Source: an uncultured virus (IMG/VR IMGVR_UViG_3300034071_000958) (lineage: Duplodnaviria; Heunggongvirae; Uroviricota; Caudoviricetes). Taken from it: a stretch of DNA of 64,000 nucleotides. The notes beneath the pieces were generated by a model, which was given only the letters and a program-made list of their open reading frames with translations, made no database searches and was not told the DNA's origin. Position numbers and translations under genes: made by a program. The first letter of the stretch is position 1. Each line of letters begins with the position of its first letter. This document shows, in pieces, positions 31,275-60,215 of this stretch. Where the stretch lies: IMG/VR virus record IMGVR_UViG_3300034071_000958. The stretch is one strand, 5' to 3'.

Positions 31275-31511
31275 ATGAACTTTACAATCTATTCAAAACC
31301 AGGTTGTCCATATTGTGACAAAATTAAAAGCGTAATGAAGTTGACAAAGATGACACATGTGGTGTATACTCTTGACAAGGACTTTACCGCAGAGGAATTT
31401 TACTCCGAGTTTGGTGAGGGGAGTACATTTCCCCAAATTGTTGTTGATGATAAAAAATTAGGAGGATGTACTGATACAGTTAAGTTTTTACAAGAGCAAA
31501 AAATTGTTTGA
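31275..31511 (+). CDS. nrdC: Glutaredoxin
   Basis: CPYC, TFPQI, GGCTD. Confidence 0.92.
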   Translation: MNFTIYSKPGCPYCDKIKSVMKLTKMTHVVYTLDKDFTAEEFYSEFGEGSTFPQIVVDDKKLGGCTDTVKFLQEQKIV

Positions 31512-31706: not shown

Positions 31707-31934
31707 ATGTTAGCAACTAGTTTAGTTTTCGGTTCTTTTTTAACCGTATTATTTTTTATAGTTGGAATAATGGGAGGATGGGTTGCAAGAGAATATATGA
31801 TGAACTATCGGGAAATTCCACGACCTCACCCCGAAATGTTTGATGGACAAGGAAATCTAATTCCAGATGAGGTGATTGCATTTAACTTTGAGAACTATCA
31901 TGACTACGAAGACAACGGCGACGAAGAAGACTGA
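31707..31934 (+). CDS. Small membrane protein
   Basis: N-terminal TM helix, HPEMFD.QGNLIPDE motif, acidic tail; RBS GAGGGAG. Confidence 0.75.
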   Translation: MLATSLVFGSFLTVLFFIVGIMGGWVAREYMMNYREIPRPHPEMFDGQGNLIPDEVIAFNFENYHDYEDNGDEED

Positions 31935-32499
31935 ATCAAAATTTACGGTTAAGAAGGAATCTCCTATTCCCGATCTTCCTTCAAATCCATTTATTTTTGA
32001 GATTTTAAGTCTTGCATGTAAGCAAAAAAGTACAGCAAAAAAGGTAGAAGTACTTCAAAAGTATTCTCATCCTGCTCTGAAGACTCTTTTTATTTGGAAC
32101 TTTGATGAGACGGTTGTTTCTATTCTTCCCCCAGGAGATGTACCTTATGCAGGTACTGATGAACAAACTTCATTCAGCGGAACTCTGTCTGGAAAGATTA
32201 CAGATGCTGTTTCTAAGATGGGTGAGTTGGGAAGTAGTTCTTTAGGTTCTCAGGACCAGGGACGCTCATCAATTCGTAAGGAATATAATAAGTTTTATAA
32301 TTTTGTAAAGGGTGGTAACGATGGATTGAGTTCTCTTCGTAGAGAAACAATGTTTATTAACATTCTTCAAGGTCTTCATCCTCTTGAAGCAGAAATTGTT
32401 ATTCTTACTAAGGATAAAAAACTGACAGACAAATACAAACTCACCAGGGAAGTAGTTTCACAAGCTTATCCTGATATTAAGTGGGGAGGTCGTTCGTGA
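31900..32499 (+). CDS. Cyanomyophage-type hypothetical protein
   Basis: LPPGDVPY, RRETMFINILQGLHPLEAE, AYPDIKWGGR. ATG at 31900. Confidence 0.75.
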   Translation: MTTKTTATKKTESKFTVKKESPIPDLPSNPFIFEILSLACKQKSTAKKVEVLQKYSHPALKTLFIWNFDETVVSILPPGDVPYAGTDEQTSFSGTLSGKITDAVSKMGELGSSSLGSQDQGRSSIRKEYNKFYNFVKGGNDGLSSLRRETMFINILQGLHPLEAEIVILTKDKKLTDKYKLTREVVSQAYPDIKWGGRS

Positions 32500-32849: not shown

Positions 32850-32945
32850 TTTTCTTTTTGGGGTAAAAAATTTCCGCCAAAATTTTTCTTGCGCGAAGGT
32901 TTTCATAAATCTTCACGCCTTTTAGTATAATAGAGATACATTTTT

Positions 32946-32959
32946 GTATCTATTGTTAC
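32946..32959. promoter_or_regulatory. Putative NtcA-binding site
   Basis: GTAtctattgtTAC = GTA-N8-TAC, centred about 60 nt upstream of the predicted transcription start. Confidence 0.55.
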
Positions 32960-32975
32960 TATTTCAAAATAAAAC

Positions 32976-33005
32976 TTGACTATATAGTGTGAATAGGGGT
33001 ATAAT
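32976..33005 (+). promoter_or_regulatory. Sigma70-type promoter
   Basis: TTGACT(32976)-18-TATAAT(33000); predicted start about 33012, just before the first aptamer. Confidence 0.7.
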
Positions 33006-33015
33006 AATCCCCTAA

Positions 33016-33266
33016 CGTTCATCCTATGACTAAAGCACTTTTGCTTTTAGCATGGGTTCCACTTCTTTCTATTTCTACGCCTCAACTTGCCAAATCTAAT
33101 CAAGTGACTATAAGTTGCGACGCAGCGTGGGAACTAATGGACATCGTTAAAAACGACGATGTAGTAGACCAAAGAAAAGAAGACCGATTGCTATCAGAAC
33201 TCCGAAAGGACGTTATAAGACTTAAGTGCTAAACTGAATAGGACGGAAGTAAGCCGACTCGGAACG
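33016..33266 (+). ncRNA. glnA-class (glutamine riboswitch)-like aptamer 1 with ORF-containing P2 loop
   Basis: P1 CGTTC(33016)/GAACG(33262); P2 TCCTAT(33022)/ATAGGA(33238); junction CGGAAGTAAG. Confidence 0.65.
33026..33232 (+). CDS. Small two-Cys protein with signal-peptide-like N-terminus, nested in aptamer 1
   Basis: MTKALLLLAWVPLL...SCDAAWELM...ELRKDVIRLKC. Confidence 0.7.
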   Translation: MTKALLLLAWVPLLSISTPQLAKSNQVTISCDAAWELMDIVKNDDVVDQRKEDRLLSELRKDVIRLKC

Positions 33267-33269
33267 GAT

Positions 33270-33438
33270 CGTTCATCTATGGAAACAATTCTCTGGACTT
33301 GCATTGAGGCTCAAAGACTTATTAGTAATGTAAAACTAAAAATGGATGAGCCTGCAAGATCTGAACTTATTCAGATCTTTAAAGAAGGATCTCCAAGAAC
33401 TTGTAAATTCATAGACGCAAAAGCCGACTGAAGGAACG
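33270..33438 (+). ncRNA. glnA-class-like aptamer 2 with ORF-containing P2 loop
   Basis: P1 CGTTC(33270)/GAACG(33434); P2 TCTATG(33276)/CATAGA(33410); 3' segment CGCAAAAGCCGACTGAAGGAACG. Confidence 0.65.
33279..33431 (+). CDS. Small two-Cys protein (50 aa; not in ORF track), nested in aptamer 2
   Basis: METILWTCIEAQRLISNVKLKMDEPARSELIQIFKEGSPRTCKFIDAKAD. Confidence 0.7.
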   Translation: METILWTCIEAQRLISNVKLKMDEPARSELIQIFKEGSPRTCKFIDAKAD

Positions 33439-33470
33439 CTCTTTAGCCTCAAAATTAAGGAGAAAACCTA

Positions 33471-33635
33471 ATGTCTAAAGTCGTATATCGTGGTGTCGAA
33501 TATGATACCGCAGAACGTCCAAATCAAACGTTTAAAATTGAACCCCACGTAGAAATTTATCGTGGTACTATGTTTTACGTTGATGAAAATGGAAACAAAC
33601 TCTCTATGTCTAAAACTAAGGGAGGTGCAAAATGA
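33471..33635 (+). CDS. DUF4278-like small protein (two YRG motifs; 54 aa; not in ORF track)
   Basis: MSKVVYRGVEYDT...EIYRGTMFY...; RBS AAGGAG. Confidence 0.8.
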   Translation: MSKVVYRGVEYDTAERPNQTFKIEPHVEIYRGTMFYVDENGNKLSMSKTKGGAK

Positions 33636-33733
33636 ACACTTACTTCGTTCGCTATCTCAAACTCAAAGCAAAAAAGGAAAAACTCCTTCATAACGCACAA
33701 CTGAATATGGCGAAGCAACCACAAGTTGCTTGA
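33632..33733 (+). CDS. Small basic protein (33 aa; not in ORF track)
   Basis: RBS GGAGG, ATGA coupling; MNTYFVRYLKLKAKKEKLLHNAQLNMAKQPQVA. Confidence 0.65.
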   Translation: MNTYFVRYLKLKAKKEKLLHNAQLNMAKQPQVA

Positions 33734-33736
33734 AGT

Positions 33737-33774
33737 AAAGGAGGGTTGATTCCCTCCTTTTTTTATGTTAAAAT
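33737..33774 (+). terminator. Terminator overlapping a sigma70-type promoter
   Basis: AAAGGAGGG-ttgatt-CCCTCCTTT plus T run; TTGATT(33746)-17-TAAAAT(33769) with TG extension. Confidence 0.8.
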
Positions 33775-33969: not shown

Positions 33970-34129
33970 TAGGGCAAGAAAAATGATGAAATTGCTCCGT
34001 AGATTGATTAAACAAGAGCATTTATATTCTGCTGAGCAATTGATTGAAATGAAATCACAATTAAGGATTCTGGAAGAAGAACTTTCAGAACTCGAAGCAA
34101 AAACATCAAAAGGATTTGGAAAGAAATGA
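33962..34129 (+). CDS. Small coiled-coil protein ending KGFG (55 aa; not in ORF track)
   Basis: MTNRARKMMKLLRRLIKQEHLYSAEQL...TSKGFGKK; ATGA overlap with thyX. Confidence 0.7.
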   Translation: MTNRARKMMKLLRRLIKQEHLYSAEQLIEMKSQLRILEEELSELEAKTSKGFGKK

Positions 34130-34764
34130 CAGTAAAACTCATTAGCGTGACCCCAGATGCAGAAAAAACAATGGCATATGTTGCTAGAGTTAGCAACCCT
34201 GCGAATCAAGACAACGAAAACTATGCCAAGTTGCTTGCTTATTGCATTAAGCATAATCATTGGTCTGTTTTTGAGCAGTCTTTTATGACTCTTGAGATCG
34301 AAACAAATCGTGGTATCGCAGCTCAAATTTTGAGGCACCGTTCTTTCACATATCAAGAATTTTCGCAGCGTTATGCAGATTCTTCTTTGTTGAGCGATTA
34401 TATTCCTGTACCTGAACTTCGTCGTCAAGATACCAAGAATCGTCAGAACTCTATTGACGACATTTCTGAGTATGAGAAACTGACTCTACAGAGTAAGATT
34501 CAAGACCATTTTGCACACTCTATGCAACTCTATAAGGAACTTCTTGCTCATGGAGTAGCAAAGGAGTGTGCAAGGTTTGTACTGCCCTTAGCGACGCCTA
34601 CACGCATTTATATGTCGGGATCATGCAGGTCATGGATTCATTATATCAATCTTCGTTCTGCAAATGGAACTCAGAAAGAACACATGGATATTGCTCTTGA
34701 GTGTAAGAAAATATTTACCGAACAATTTCCATCAGTCTCAGAAGCGTTAGAGTGGAATAAATAA
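34126..34764 (+). CDS. thyX: FAD-dependent thymidylate synthase
   Basis: HWSVFE, QILRHRSFTYQEFSQRY (RHRX7S), KECARFVLP. Confidence 0.97.
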   Translation: MTVKLISVTPDAEKTMAYVARVSNPANQDNENYAKLLAYCIKHNHWSVFEQSFMTLEIETNRGIAAQILRHRSFTYQEFSQRYADSSLLSDYIPVPELRRQDTKNRQNSIDDISEYEKLTLQSKIQDHFAHSMQLYKELLAHGVAKECARFVLPLATPTRIYMSGSCRSWIHYINLRSANGTQKEHMDIALECKKIFTEQFPSVSEALEWNK

Positions 34765-34786: not shown

Positions 34787-35161
34787 ATGTCTGTCAAATA
34801 TTCTTGGAAAATTCATGCATTGAATTATAATACTGCAGGATTATCTGGTGCAGTTAGTTCTGTAGAATGGATTTACACTGCTACAGAAAAAGTGAATGAA
34901 ACTACTTTTACTGCTGATGAAAGAGGTACTCTAGAATTGCCTTCAGCTGCTGAAGATGATTTTACTGAGTATTCTGATTTAACTGAGGAACAAATTATTT
35001 CTTGGGTTGAGACTTTAATTGGGGAAGAAGAGATTGCGAATAAGCAATTCAGATTATCTTCTATAATTGATGCTCAAAAATCAGCATCAACAACCGAAAA
35101 GTATGATACTTTACCTTGGGAATCTCAAGAAGTTGTTGATGTGGAAACAGTAGAAGAGTAA
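34787..35161 (+). CDS. Acidic hypothetical protein with own late promoter
   Basis: FTEYSDLTEEQIISWVE..LPW; ATAAATA at 34757. Confidence 0.7.
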   Translation: MSVKYSWKIHALNYNTAGLSGAVSSVEWIYTATEKVNETTFTADERGTLELPSAAEDDFTEYSDLTEEQIISWVETLIGEEEIANKQFRLSSIIDAQKSASTTEKYDTLPWESQEVVDVETVEE

Positions 35162-59970: not shown

Positions 59971-60043
59971 GCAGGTTTACCAATCTGGTGAATGGACCGT
60001 TCTCATAAAGCGGCGAAGGCGAGTTCAATCCTCGCAACCTGCA
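59971..60043 (+). tRNA. tRNA with CAU anticodon (Met, or Ile2 if lysidine-modified)
   Basis: Acceptor GCAGGTT/AACCTGC; anticodon loop CTCATAA; T-arm GCGAG-TTCAATC-CTCGC. Confidence 0.88.
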
Positions 60044-60142: not shown

Positions 60143-60215
60143 GCCCGTGTAGCCCAGCGGAAGAGGCAGAACACTTAAAATGTTCCAAGCGGTGGTTCGA
60201 ATCCACTCACGGGTA
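60143..60215 (+). tRNA. tRNA-Leu(UAA) with short variable loop
   Basis: Acceptor GCCCGTG/CACGGGT; anticodon arm GAACA-CTTAAAA-TGTTC; T-arm GGTGG-TTCGAAT-CCACT. Confidence 0.88.

Follow-up and report, generated by a model that had tools for sequence, protein, structure and literature searches.

Riboswitch aptamers are usually viewed as compact non-coding leaders; the glutamine-I riboswitch (RF01739) occupies ∼55 nucleotides (nt). Its parts, as given for the Synechocystis gifB/IF17 leader in the available sections of PMC6212724, are a helix P1, a junction A, a helix P2, the strand CG(G/C)AAGUA, a helix P3, the strand GAAG and a C after P1; a sequence complementary to the Shine-Dalgarno site (anti-SD) comes right after P1, a DUF4278-type gene lies downstream and the setting is cyanobacterial or cyanophage. 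The same sections propose that glutamine captures the C after P1 and melts the pairing that hides the ribosome site, turning IF17 on. Here we describe an element with these parts and this setting at positions 33016–33438 of a 64,000-nt stretch of DNA (the window) from an uncultured virus of the Caudoviricetes (IMG/VR record IMGVR_UViG_3300034071_000958). Unlike glutamine-I, it spans 423 nt and two of its hairpins enclose genes of 68 and 50 codons; the consensus is obtained only by taking the 5′ part of one unit (unit 1) with the 3′ part of a second (unit 2), its P3 bears a second, degenerate core, and the Rfam model is blind to it. We consider it likely that the locus is an operon with a single composite glutamine-I riboswitch, both peripheral hairpins of which have been enlarged to house genes; the sensor would bind glutamine and would be coupled to translation of the nested genes.

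The available parts of two studies of tandem glutamine riboswitches (Weinberg 2010, PMC2864571; Sherlock 2022, PMC9481103) describe two glnA-like units 3 nt apart and upstream of one gene, as found here, and compact alleles of our locus are evidently among the published tandem counts. As far as its available part goes, the tandem review sets aside arrangements with intervening open reading frames (ORFs) or gaps >300 nt (PMC9481103), so gene-bearing forms would be missed. Unlike the tandem switches, the units of the window appear to be complementary halves joined by a covarying helix and not two complete switches. The glutamine-II riboswitch (Downstream-peptide motif, RF01704) was tried as a circular permutation of glnA, an idea that the available rows of the 2010 alignment led us to reject. 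Unit 2 resembles this motif in its order CGUUCA-hairpin-CGCA..-linker-GGAACG without AAGUA, and both are associated with short ORFs and DUF4278 genes; in glutamine-II, however, the ORF lies downstream of the motif, whereas here it lies inside, and neither RF01704 nor RF01739 finds a match (E <= 10) on the whole 100.6-kb record to which the window belongs.

Structured RNAs with protein genes in their peripheral loops are familiar from group I and group II introns, where the closing helix is kept and the ORF ends reach into structured parts. Those introns splice themselves, and the proteins of their ORFs aid mobility or splicing (group I introns hold endonuclease genes in such loops), whereas the RNA of the window is predicted to be a ligand sensor in an mRNA leader, with ORFs for small two-cysteine proteins. 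In the MS2 maturation gene and hok mRNA an AUG is closed by a segment transcribed >100 nt later, which leaves a brief co-transcriptional window for initiation; here, in contrast, the closing helix would also be the stem of a metabolite sensor. A full-text literature search found no account of an ORF inside a riboswitch aptamer, and the available parts of PMC2864571, PMC6212724, PMC9481103, PMC9964418 and PMC12379486 hold no such description. The 2010 glnA alignment (PMC2864571, supplement 5), in its available part, has so many insert columns (∼130 in P2, ∼115 in P3) that some member must hold a long insert; six nested-ORF start motifs gave 0 matches to it. ORF-split forms would escape, or be excluded from, Rfam scans and the published surveys of tandems.

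The original prediction, made from the letters alone, had proposed two units 3 nt apart with a common CGTTC-A-P2 layout, and direct reading of the sequence finds them at 33016–33438. The P2 loops, expected at about 210 and 130 nt, measure 210 and 128 nt when the arms are counted as 6-mers (TCCTAT/ATAGGA in unit 1); the P2 helices themselves have 6 base pairs (bp) in unit 1 (P2a) and 8 bp in unit 2 (P2b). As had also been claimed, the ATG of each nested gene (ORF1 and ORF2) lies within the P2 5′ arm, and inspection of the sequence ahead of either gene revealed no Shine-Dalgarno motif. ORF1 stops inside its loop, 5 nt ahead of the 3′ arm; ORF2 stops in the 3′ segment, where its TGA combines the last base of AGCCGACT with the GA that opens GAAGG. 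Since the unit 2 frame ends at this junction stop, the conserved sensor 3′ strand encodes both the C-terminus DAKAD and the stop codon; in gene-bearing alleles the same letters are sensor strand, codons and stop codon. The partial E-loop consensus noticed in each copy is real, with AAGUA in unit 1 only and GAAG in unit 2 only; thus the proposed shared layout stands as far as half of the E-loop-type consensus per unit and fails for GAAGGAACG, which occurs only once in the window. Other CGGAAGTA sites in the window (20342 and 38230) were rejected as chance matches with partner motifs missing.

In a distant blastn comparison of 32850–33750 with phage records, only ∼48 nt at the junction (33238–33285) were widely conserved (93–96% identity), and Synechococcus phage S-CREM1 carries a ‘riboswitch, glnA’ annotation over them. 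The S-CREM1 homologue is compact (93 nt: CGTTCA-TCC-GAAA-GGA-CGGAAGTAAGCCGACGCGGAACG-GAT-CGTTCA-hairpin-CGCAAACGCCGACTGAAGGAACG); it has in common with the window the unit-specific motifs, the GAT spacer, the CTCTTTAA..AAGGAG platform (CTCTTTA..AAGGAG) and an MS..YRG..YDT gene. RF01739, a 53-position model with a gathering threshold of 35 bits, gives its two units 33.5 and 20.4 bits; the S-CREM1 authors list a 99-nt feature as glnA with 44.0 bits (Table 4, in the available part of their paper). In a scan of 20 related loci, compact units scored near or above the RF01739 threshold (L010 43.6, L011 40.3, L061 40.2 and L003 37.2 bits); with RF01704 (threshold 33 bits) compact homologues score 21–33.2 bits, 33.2 being the score of L080. 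The features of RF01739 can be followed into the window. P1 (CGUUC/GAACG) with the junction A into P2 is found twice and is invariant across the loci examined; P2 lies between CGUUCA and CG(G/C)AAGUA; CGGAAGUA and GAAG stand beside P3 in the composite only, in neither unit alone; and the C after P1 adjoins a sequence pairing with the ribosome site (C33439 and CUCUUUAG with UUAAGGAG). The proposed assignment of 33016–33438 to a glutamine-riboswitch-type leader, which would bind glutamine, is thus supported by its homology to a compact form recognised by Rfam.

The two units had been described as tandem aptamers, with pairing across the copies as an alternative. An independent side-by-side pair is probably wrong, and the alternative fits better: the units probably form one composite sensor, to which unit 1 gives CGGAAGUA and unit 2 gives GAAGGAACG. 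In all 31 distinct tail combinations unit 1 has CG[GC]AAGUA and never GAA ahead of GGAACG, while unit 2 has [GA]AAGGAACG and never AAGUA; with 0 of 31 tails complete, neither unit alone yields the glutamine-I consensus. The segment after the unit 1 AAGUA pairs with the segment ahead of the unit 2 GAAG, as AGCCGACU/AGCCGACU, GGACGACG/CGCCGCCC, AGUCG/CGACU or AGUCA/UGACU. Among 33 distinct compact tandems, the pair types in this inter-unit helix were GC 11, UA 8 and AU 3, with none unpaired, at columns 39–105; AU 25, GU 4, GC 3 and other 1 at columns 32–113; and GC 28, GU 4 and AU 1 at columns 36–108. For the whole structure, 94.2% of cells were paired versus 83.7% after shuffling, and the covariation score was 0.277 versus 0.097; 0 of 500 shuffles reached either value. 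Infernal aligned L010 and L061 each as a single aptamer that starts 5′ with unit 1 and finishes 3′ with unit 2, and treated the central ∼38 nt as a local insertion. We favour the composite sensor because of these alignments and because the inter-unit helix sits at the position of the Rfam P3.

The competing arrangement, which we regard as unlikely, has two side-by-side aptamers, each with its own P1 (33016–20/33262–66 and 33270–74/33434–38). The segment 33261–33275 would be either an inner hairpin (GAACG/CGUUC, 3-nt loop) or, side by side, the P1 3′ strand of unit 1 followed by the P1 5′ strand of unit 2. The covarying AGCCGACU/AGCCGACU helix would then be an interlocking pseudoknot, and the units, which resemble the E-loop-less glutamine-II type, may each bind their own glutamine. 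Local helices would form earlier during transcription, and single units are scored both by RF01739 (L003 unit 2) and by RF01704 (L080). In addition, the available part of the Weinberg 2010 glnA alignment (PMC2864571, supplement 5) has separate entries for unit-1-type and unit-2-type sequences, and 157 glutamine doublets are counted as tandem systems in the available part of PMC9481103. Against this stand the incomplete tails; moreover, AAGUA and GAAG directly flank the inter-unit helix, just as they flank P3, and in the composite this helix requires no pseudoknot. The composite also has the complete consensus, and in the loci for which Infernal reports it (43.6 and 40.2 bits) its score is the highest.

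To follow the helices that close the genes, P2 arms were anchored on CGTTCA and CG[CG]A and compared across loci. For 48 distinct gene-bearing unit 2 sequences, P2b positions 1–5 were paired in 100, 100, 100, 98 and 94%, with pair types TA 26, CG 16 and TG 6 at position 3, AT 23, CG 15 and TA 8 at position 4, and TA 22 and AT 18 at position 5. The mean contiguous stem was 6.19, versus 3.76 ± 0.25 with 3′ arms shuffled among loci (0 of 2000 shuffles reached 6.19). In compact tandems, 4 of 4 P2a pairs and 6 of 7 P2b pairs covaried. The covariation suspected in P2 is accordingly present across related loci; P1 is invariant. The first and last 30 nt of the inserts pair with a mean of −16.4 kcal/mol, versus −11.3 (unit 2) and −12.7 (unit 1) kcal/mol with the 3′ arm of another locus and −7.7 kcal/mol with a mid-ORF segment of the same locus. 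The minimum-free-energy fold of the window has P2a with a second tier and P2b with ∼20 pairs, running into both ends of ORF2; it also pairs the Shine-Dalgarno sequence with CUCUUUAG. The closing helices covary and reach well into coding sequence.

By their patterns of sequence change the nested ORFs are real genes. We parsed 83 long units (33 of unit 1 and 50 of unit 2, window included); in every one, an ATG lies 3–7 nt beyond CGTTCA and the ORF is intact, at 49–92 amino acids (aa). The unit 2 ORFs end at T[GA]A in GAC-TGA-AGGAACG in 46 of 50 cases, the frame to this junction stop being kept across unit lengths of 167–217 nt, and a TAA inside CGCAAGTAA terminates 11 of the 33 unit 1 ORFs. By codon position, pairwise differences rank 3 > 1 > 2 in four of four ORF sets (0.237/0.160/0.113 in the ORF1 family of the window). 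Both cysteines are invariant within each ORF family, and the unit 1 and unit 2 families are related (hhalign 93.4%, E 2.4e-7); judged by these profiles, ORF1 and ORF2 are paralogous members of one two-cysteine family. AlphaFold models ORF1 as a two-helix hairpin (residues 31–42 and 49–64) with the cysteines at the outer ends (predicted local distance difference test 71.5), and its N-terminus resembles a signal for secretion. Public data contain 245 protein clusters homologous to ORF1; one has the JGI label ‘site-specific recombinase XerC’ and the others are either nameless or called ‘hypothetical’; the only library match of ORF2 is phrog_504 (E 0.017), and tblastn with ORF1 and ORF2 against 50,697 phage records gave no match. 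Comparative evidence thus bears out the proposal that the hairpins close around real genes with the start codons in the closing helices.

An IMG/VR scan with the 15-nt junction fetched at least 120 loci, six of them chance matches (L002, L019, L039, L048, L065 and L095). Among the matches listed we counted 114 true loci, all of cyanophages. The hairpins of units 1 and 2 were compact/compact in 37, compact/long in 34, long/compact in 17 and long/long, the window type, in 11; 15 loci were partly parsed. At least 70 of the 114 have one or more gene-bearing hairpins, and five further loci (L013, L030, L035, L069 and L118) visibly start an ORF in unit 2. Most sampled alleles of what appears to be a widespread cyanophage glutamine sensor carry real genes within their stems. 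The cultured phages form a natural series: both hairpins are compact in S-PM2 and S-CREM1; the second is gene-bearing in P-SSM2 (nested ORF without RefSeq annotation) and S-SSM7 (gene SSSM7_289, T4-GC 430); both are in P-SSM4 (PSSM4_169.2 and PSSM4_169.3, T4-GC 429 and 430). Among the matches listed of a genome-contig scan with the junction 15-mer, only L207 shows the element, L127 is a chance match and the rest are nearly all chance matches; therefore we make no statement on cellular genomes.

A search with the ORF1 protein identified 247 relatives, and we retrieved the best 80. CGTTCA lies 4 nt ahead of the ATG in 80 of 80, and a 3′ half with a 6-bp P2 is present in 79, the exception being cut by a contig end; the spacer is GAT in 67, GAA in 7, GAG in 2 and longer in 2. 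In place of the 3-nt GAT, L289 has an enlarged spacer of 21 nt and L299 one of 5 nt, which makes them natural tests of the tolerance of the inner hairpin loop or linker. A natural variant with an unburied AUG is found in L035, where the nested ORF of unit 2 is preceded by a GGAGG ribosome site of its own and starts at an ATG placed ∼21 nt into the loop, not in the stem; its stop TAG sits in the P2 3′ arm.

In the composite reading, one short phage operon, from promoter to terminator (Table 1), would open directly with the glnA-type riboswitch, which would control the DUF4278/IF17-like gene by hiding its Shine-Dalgarno sequence. P1 would be formed by CGUUC (33016–20) with GAACG (33434–38), P2 by P2a and P3 by AGCCGACU (33252–59) with AGCCGACU (33422–29), with CGGAAGUA as the first and GAAG as the second junction; the P3 stem would bear the inner degenerate core, made of the GAACG-GAU-CGUUC hairpin and P2b. 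P2a and P2b would be enlarged around the two paralogous two-cysteine genes, each helix closing on a start codon, and ORF2 would be read through the sensor 3′ strand to terminate at the junction. Because the hairpins are stretched around complete genes, folding of the sensor and translation of the nested genes would have to compete on one RNA. The folded sensor would bury both AUGs, so that nested translation would start mainly on nascent RNA, each AUG staying accessible only while the next 210 or 128 nt, up to its 3′ arm, are being transcribed. Ribosomes on either ORF would block formation of P2a, P2b and P3 and keep the sensor unfolded; a ribosome terminating at the ORF2 UGA (33429–31) would cover GAACG of P1 and part of the anti-SD, and could open the ribosome site of the downstream gene. 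Glutamine binding would activate the DUF4278-like gene, as proposed for the gifB leader. The result may be reciprocal expression or sequential expression, or the nested genes may be mere passengers.

One could speculate, and we do so tentatively, that one mRNA serves as a two-input, two-output device in which the sensor and ribosomes compete for the same nucleotides. Taken as one package, this speculation would have the two-cysteine proteins produced as a burst from the nascent transcript, or at low glutamine, the IF17-like protein made only after sensor closure plus glutamine or through a ribosome terminating at the ORF2 stop, and the conserved flanks acting as recombination sites that swap hairpin cassettes across cyanophage populations. 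If the coupling is real, the locus would be a natural case of ribosome traffic as an input to a metabolite sensor, with reciprocal gene expression from one leader during phage takeover of host nitrogen metabolism.

Several results weigh against a composite, gene-housing riboswitch. No Rfam glutamine-family match was obtained on 32950–33500, whether the gathering threshold or E <= 10 was applied, and the element thus stays below the 35 bits of RF01739 and the 33 bits of RF01704; this is expected as the 53-position model faces inserts of 210 and 128 nt, and glutamine-I membership therefore rests on homology to the compact alleles. Neither unit alone has the complete consensus. The P3 helix holds two conserved mismatches (C.A and A.C) and is missing from the minimum-free-energy fold of the window; covariation cannot separate the composite from an interlocked side-by-side fold because the P1 strands are invariant, partly fixed by the search pattern and parser. 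P2a varies little in the window's family, its mean stem of 5.50 being equal to the maximum of its shuffles (4.76 ± 0.21); the covariation that had been read from the two pairs of P2 arms goes well beyond shuffles for P2b. No function is assigned to ORF1 and ORF2, which found no explanatory family in Pfam, PHROGs or the protein atlas. The downstream gene scores 19.6 bits (E 0.0012) with PF14105, below the cut-off of 25.3 bits, and for that reason is termed DUF4278-like only; it matches phrog_5049 with E 9e-9. Contigs from RNA libraries cannot show transcription, ends or strand. Finally, the long closing helices could have been selected only for foldability of the sensor.

This last point belongs to the view that the nested genes are passengers riding the riboswitch promoter without regulatory coupling, which we judge somewhat unlikely. 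Insertions into the P2 loops would be tolerated because these loops make no contact with the ligand, as they are in the peripheral loops of group I introns, and the conserved flanks would be recombination sites shuffling cassettes. All four presence/absence combinations do exist; an identical ORF subfamily and an identical compact hairpin (TTCGCTATT..AATAGCGAA) occur in either unit; RNA libraries that contain gene-bearing alleles contain compact ones too; and the ORF of L035 has its own GGAGG well within the loop. Against this view, in 83 of 83 units with very different arms the ATG lies in or adjoins a closing helix of 5–8 pairs, the junction-stop frame is kept in 46 of 50 unit 2 ORFs through varying unit lengths, all of the best 80 ORF1 relatives are nested and none is free-standing, and a search of the virus's own genome found no second copy.

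The element might also be a non-working riboswitch, with decayed motifs of a duplicated aptamer serving as gene boundaries or as the promoter-proximal leader of a small-gene array. The missing Rfam match in the window and the part of the consensus absent from each unit would agree with decay. We find this highly improbable, given that the sensor motifs are near-constant across diverse loci (the 31 tail combinations) while the ORFs diverge to 25–45% identity, that compensatory changes occur in three helices, and that conservation extends to the anti-SD platform and the downstream DUF4278-like gene, a pattern shared with validated glutamine riboswitches. The composite riboswitch with its predicted operon is laid out in Table 1.

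Table 1. Features of the predicted riboswitch operon (window coordinates; RNA letters unless marked as DNA)
Feature	Position	Strand	Basis
Sigma-70-type promoter, TTGACT-18 nt-TATAAT (DNA)	32976–33005	+	11/12 consensus matches
P1 5′ strand CGUUC (33016–33020) and junction A (33021)	33016–33021	+	Same in S-CREM1; same as positions 3–8 of RF01739 consensus
P2a 5′ arm UCCUAU, holding AU of the ORF1 AUG	33022–33027	+	Sequence, arm comparison, fold
ORF1, 68 aa, inside hairpin P2a; signal-peptide-like N-terminus, invariant Cys31 and Cys68	33026–33232	+	ORF list, homologues, alignment
P2a second tier, AGCACUU (partner AAGUGCU at 33224–33230)	33034–33040	+	Minimum-free-energy fold, duplex energies
P2a second tier, 3′ partner; overlaps last two ORF1 codons and first stop-codon base	33224–33230	+	Fold, duplex energies
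P2a 3′ arm AUAGGA	33238–33243	+	Sequence, arm comparison
Junction CGGAAGUA (DNA CGGAAGTA), E-loop-type strand of glutamine-I consensus, unit 1 only	33244–33251	+	Sequence, RF01739 consensus, tail comparison
Inter-unit helix, 5′ strand AGCCGACU (DNA AGCCGACT), at Rfam P3 position	33252–33259	+	Covariation, Rfam composite alignment
GGAACG-GAU-CGUUCA: GGAACG 33261–33266 (preceded by C), spacer GAT (DNA) 33267–33269, CGTTCA (DNA) 33270–33275	33261–33275	+	Sequence, fold
P2b 5′ arm UCUAUGGA (DNA TCTATGGA), holding the ORF2 AUG	33276–33283	+	Arm comparison, fold, duplex energies
ORF2, 50 aa; invariant Cys8 and Cys42	33279–33431	+	ORF list, alignment
P2b 3′ arm UUCAUAGA (DNA TTCATAGA)	33408–33415	+	Arm comparison, fold, duplex energies
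Unit 2 junction CGCAAA, without AAGUA	33416–33421	+	Sequence, tail comparison
Inter-unit helix, 3′ strand AGCCGACU (DNA AGCCGACT)	33422–33429	+	Tail comparison, covariation
GAAG junction (33430–33433) and P1 3′ strand GAACG (33434–33438); sole GAAGGAACG in the window	33430–33438	+	Sequence
Predicted expression platform: C33439 and CUCUUUAG (33439–33446) pair with UUAAGGAG (33455–33462), Shine-Dalgarno AAGGAG inside	33439–33462	+	Fold
Putative regulated downstream gene, DUF4278-like (IF17-like), 54 aa	33471–33635	+	PF14105, phrog_5049, S-CREM1 homologue
33-aa ORF, start overlapping preceding stop (ATGA)	33632–33733	+	ORF list
Predicted intrinsic terminator, operon end	33737–33760	+	Terminator prediction

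Transcription is predicted to start at ∼33012, 4 nt ahead of the sensor. Of 111 related loci, 77 have a −10-like hexamer no more than 12 nt ahead of CGTTCA, and in 72 it ends 7–10 nt upstream; as it is so near, the sensor should stand at the transcript 5′ end and the leader of ORF1 should be only ∼14 nt long. In S-CREM1, for which the anti-SD hairpin of the window is also predicted, the riboswitch-controlled gene is a single ORF of 48 aa, whereas the window has the 54-aa gene and the overlapping 33-aa ORF. The latter resembles, by eye, the C-terminal helix of the single S-CREM1 protein; the two ORFs may be a split gene or a coupled pair.

In four RNA-library runs, from four studies, contigs extend over 33020–33291 and 33394–33530, and single contigs span all of unit 2 with ORF2 (X1, 33258–33438; X3, 33237–33445). 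No contig of the four runs lies over 32850–32951, this uncovered part being no evidence for the transcript start. In one X2 contig, letters that we take to be Illumina adapter abut the predicted start at 33012, a single weak hint. Besides gene-bearing alleles, the RNA libraries hold compact alleles of both hairpins, with hairpin-loop letters replacing the gene. Joints in the RNA-library contigs were considered as splicing, an explanation that we rejected as the skipped parts are replaced by compact hairpin-loop letters also seen in DNA contigs. The RNA libraries with parts of the stretch are labelled as aquatic, freshwater, lake or riverine metagenomes (sampled-word shares <=0.27).

The surroundings of the operon in the window hold genes for a glutaredoxin (31275–31511, +; PF00462, E 4e-13), a DUF6433 protein (31876–32499, +; E 4e-37), ThyX (34126–34764, +; PF02511, E 2e-49) and a DUF7936 protein (34787–35161, +; E 2e-16), as is typical for a cyanomyophage auxiliary-gene region. 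Elsewhere in the window, we found a PhotoRC-II RNA (RF01717; 3626–3719, +; 79.5 bits, threshold 39), a cis-regulatory motif associated with cyanophage photosystem genes, and two tRNA genes (59971–60043 and 60143–60215, +; Rfam 49.2 and 56.6 bits). Related loci hold other RNA motifs. In L006 a manA RNA (RF01745, 182.6 bits; 131–327, −) lies ∼380 nt from the glutamine element; in S-CREM1 (L001) a weak ROSE_3-like match (606–662, −; 19 bits, threshold 43) lies just upstream of a small heat-shock protein gene, and a second weak ROSE_3-like match (29.8 bits) was seen in L018.

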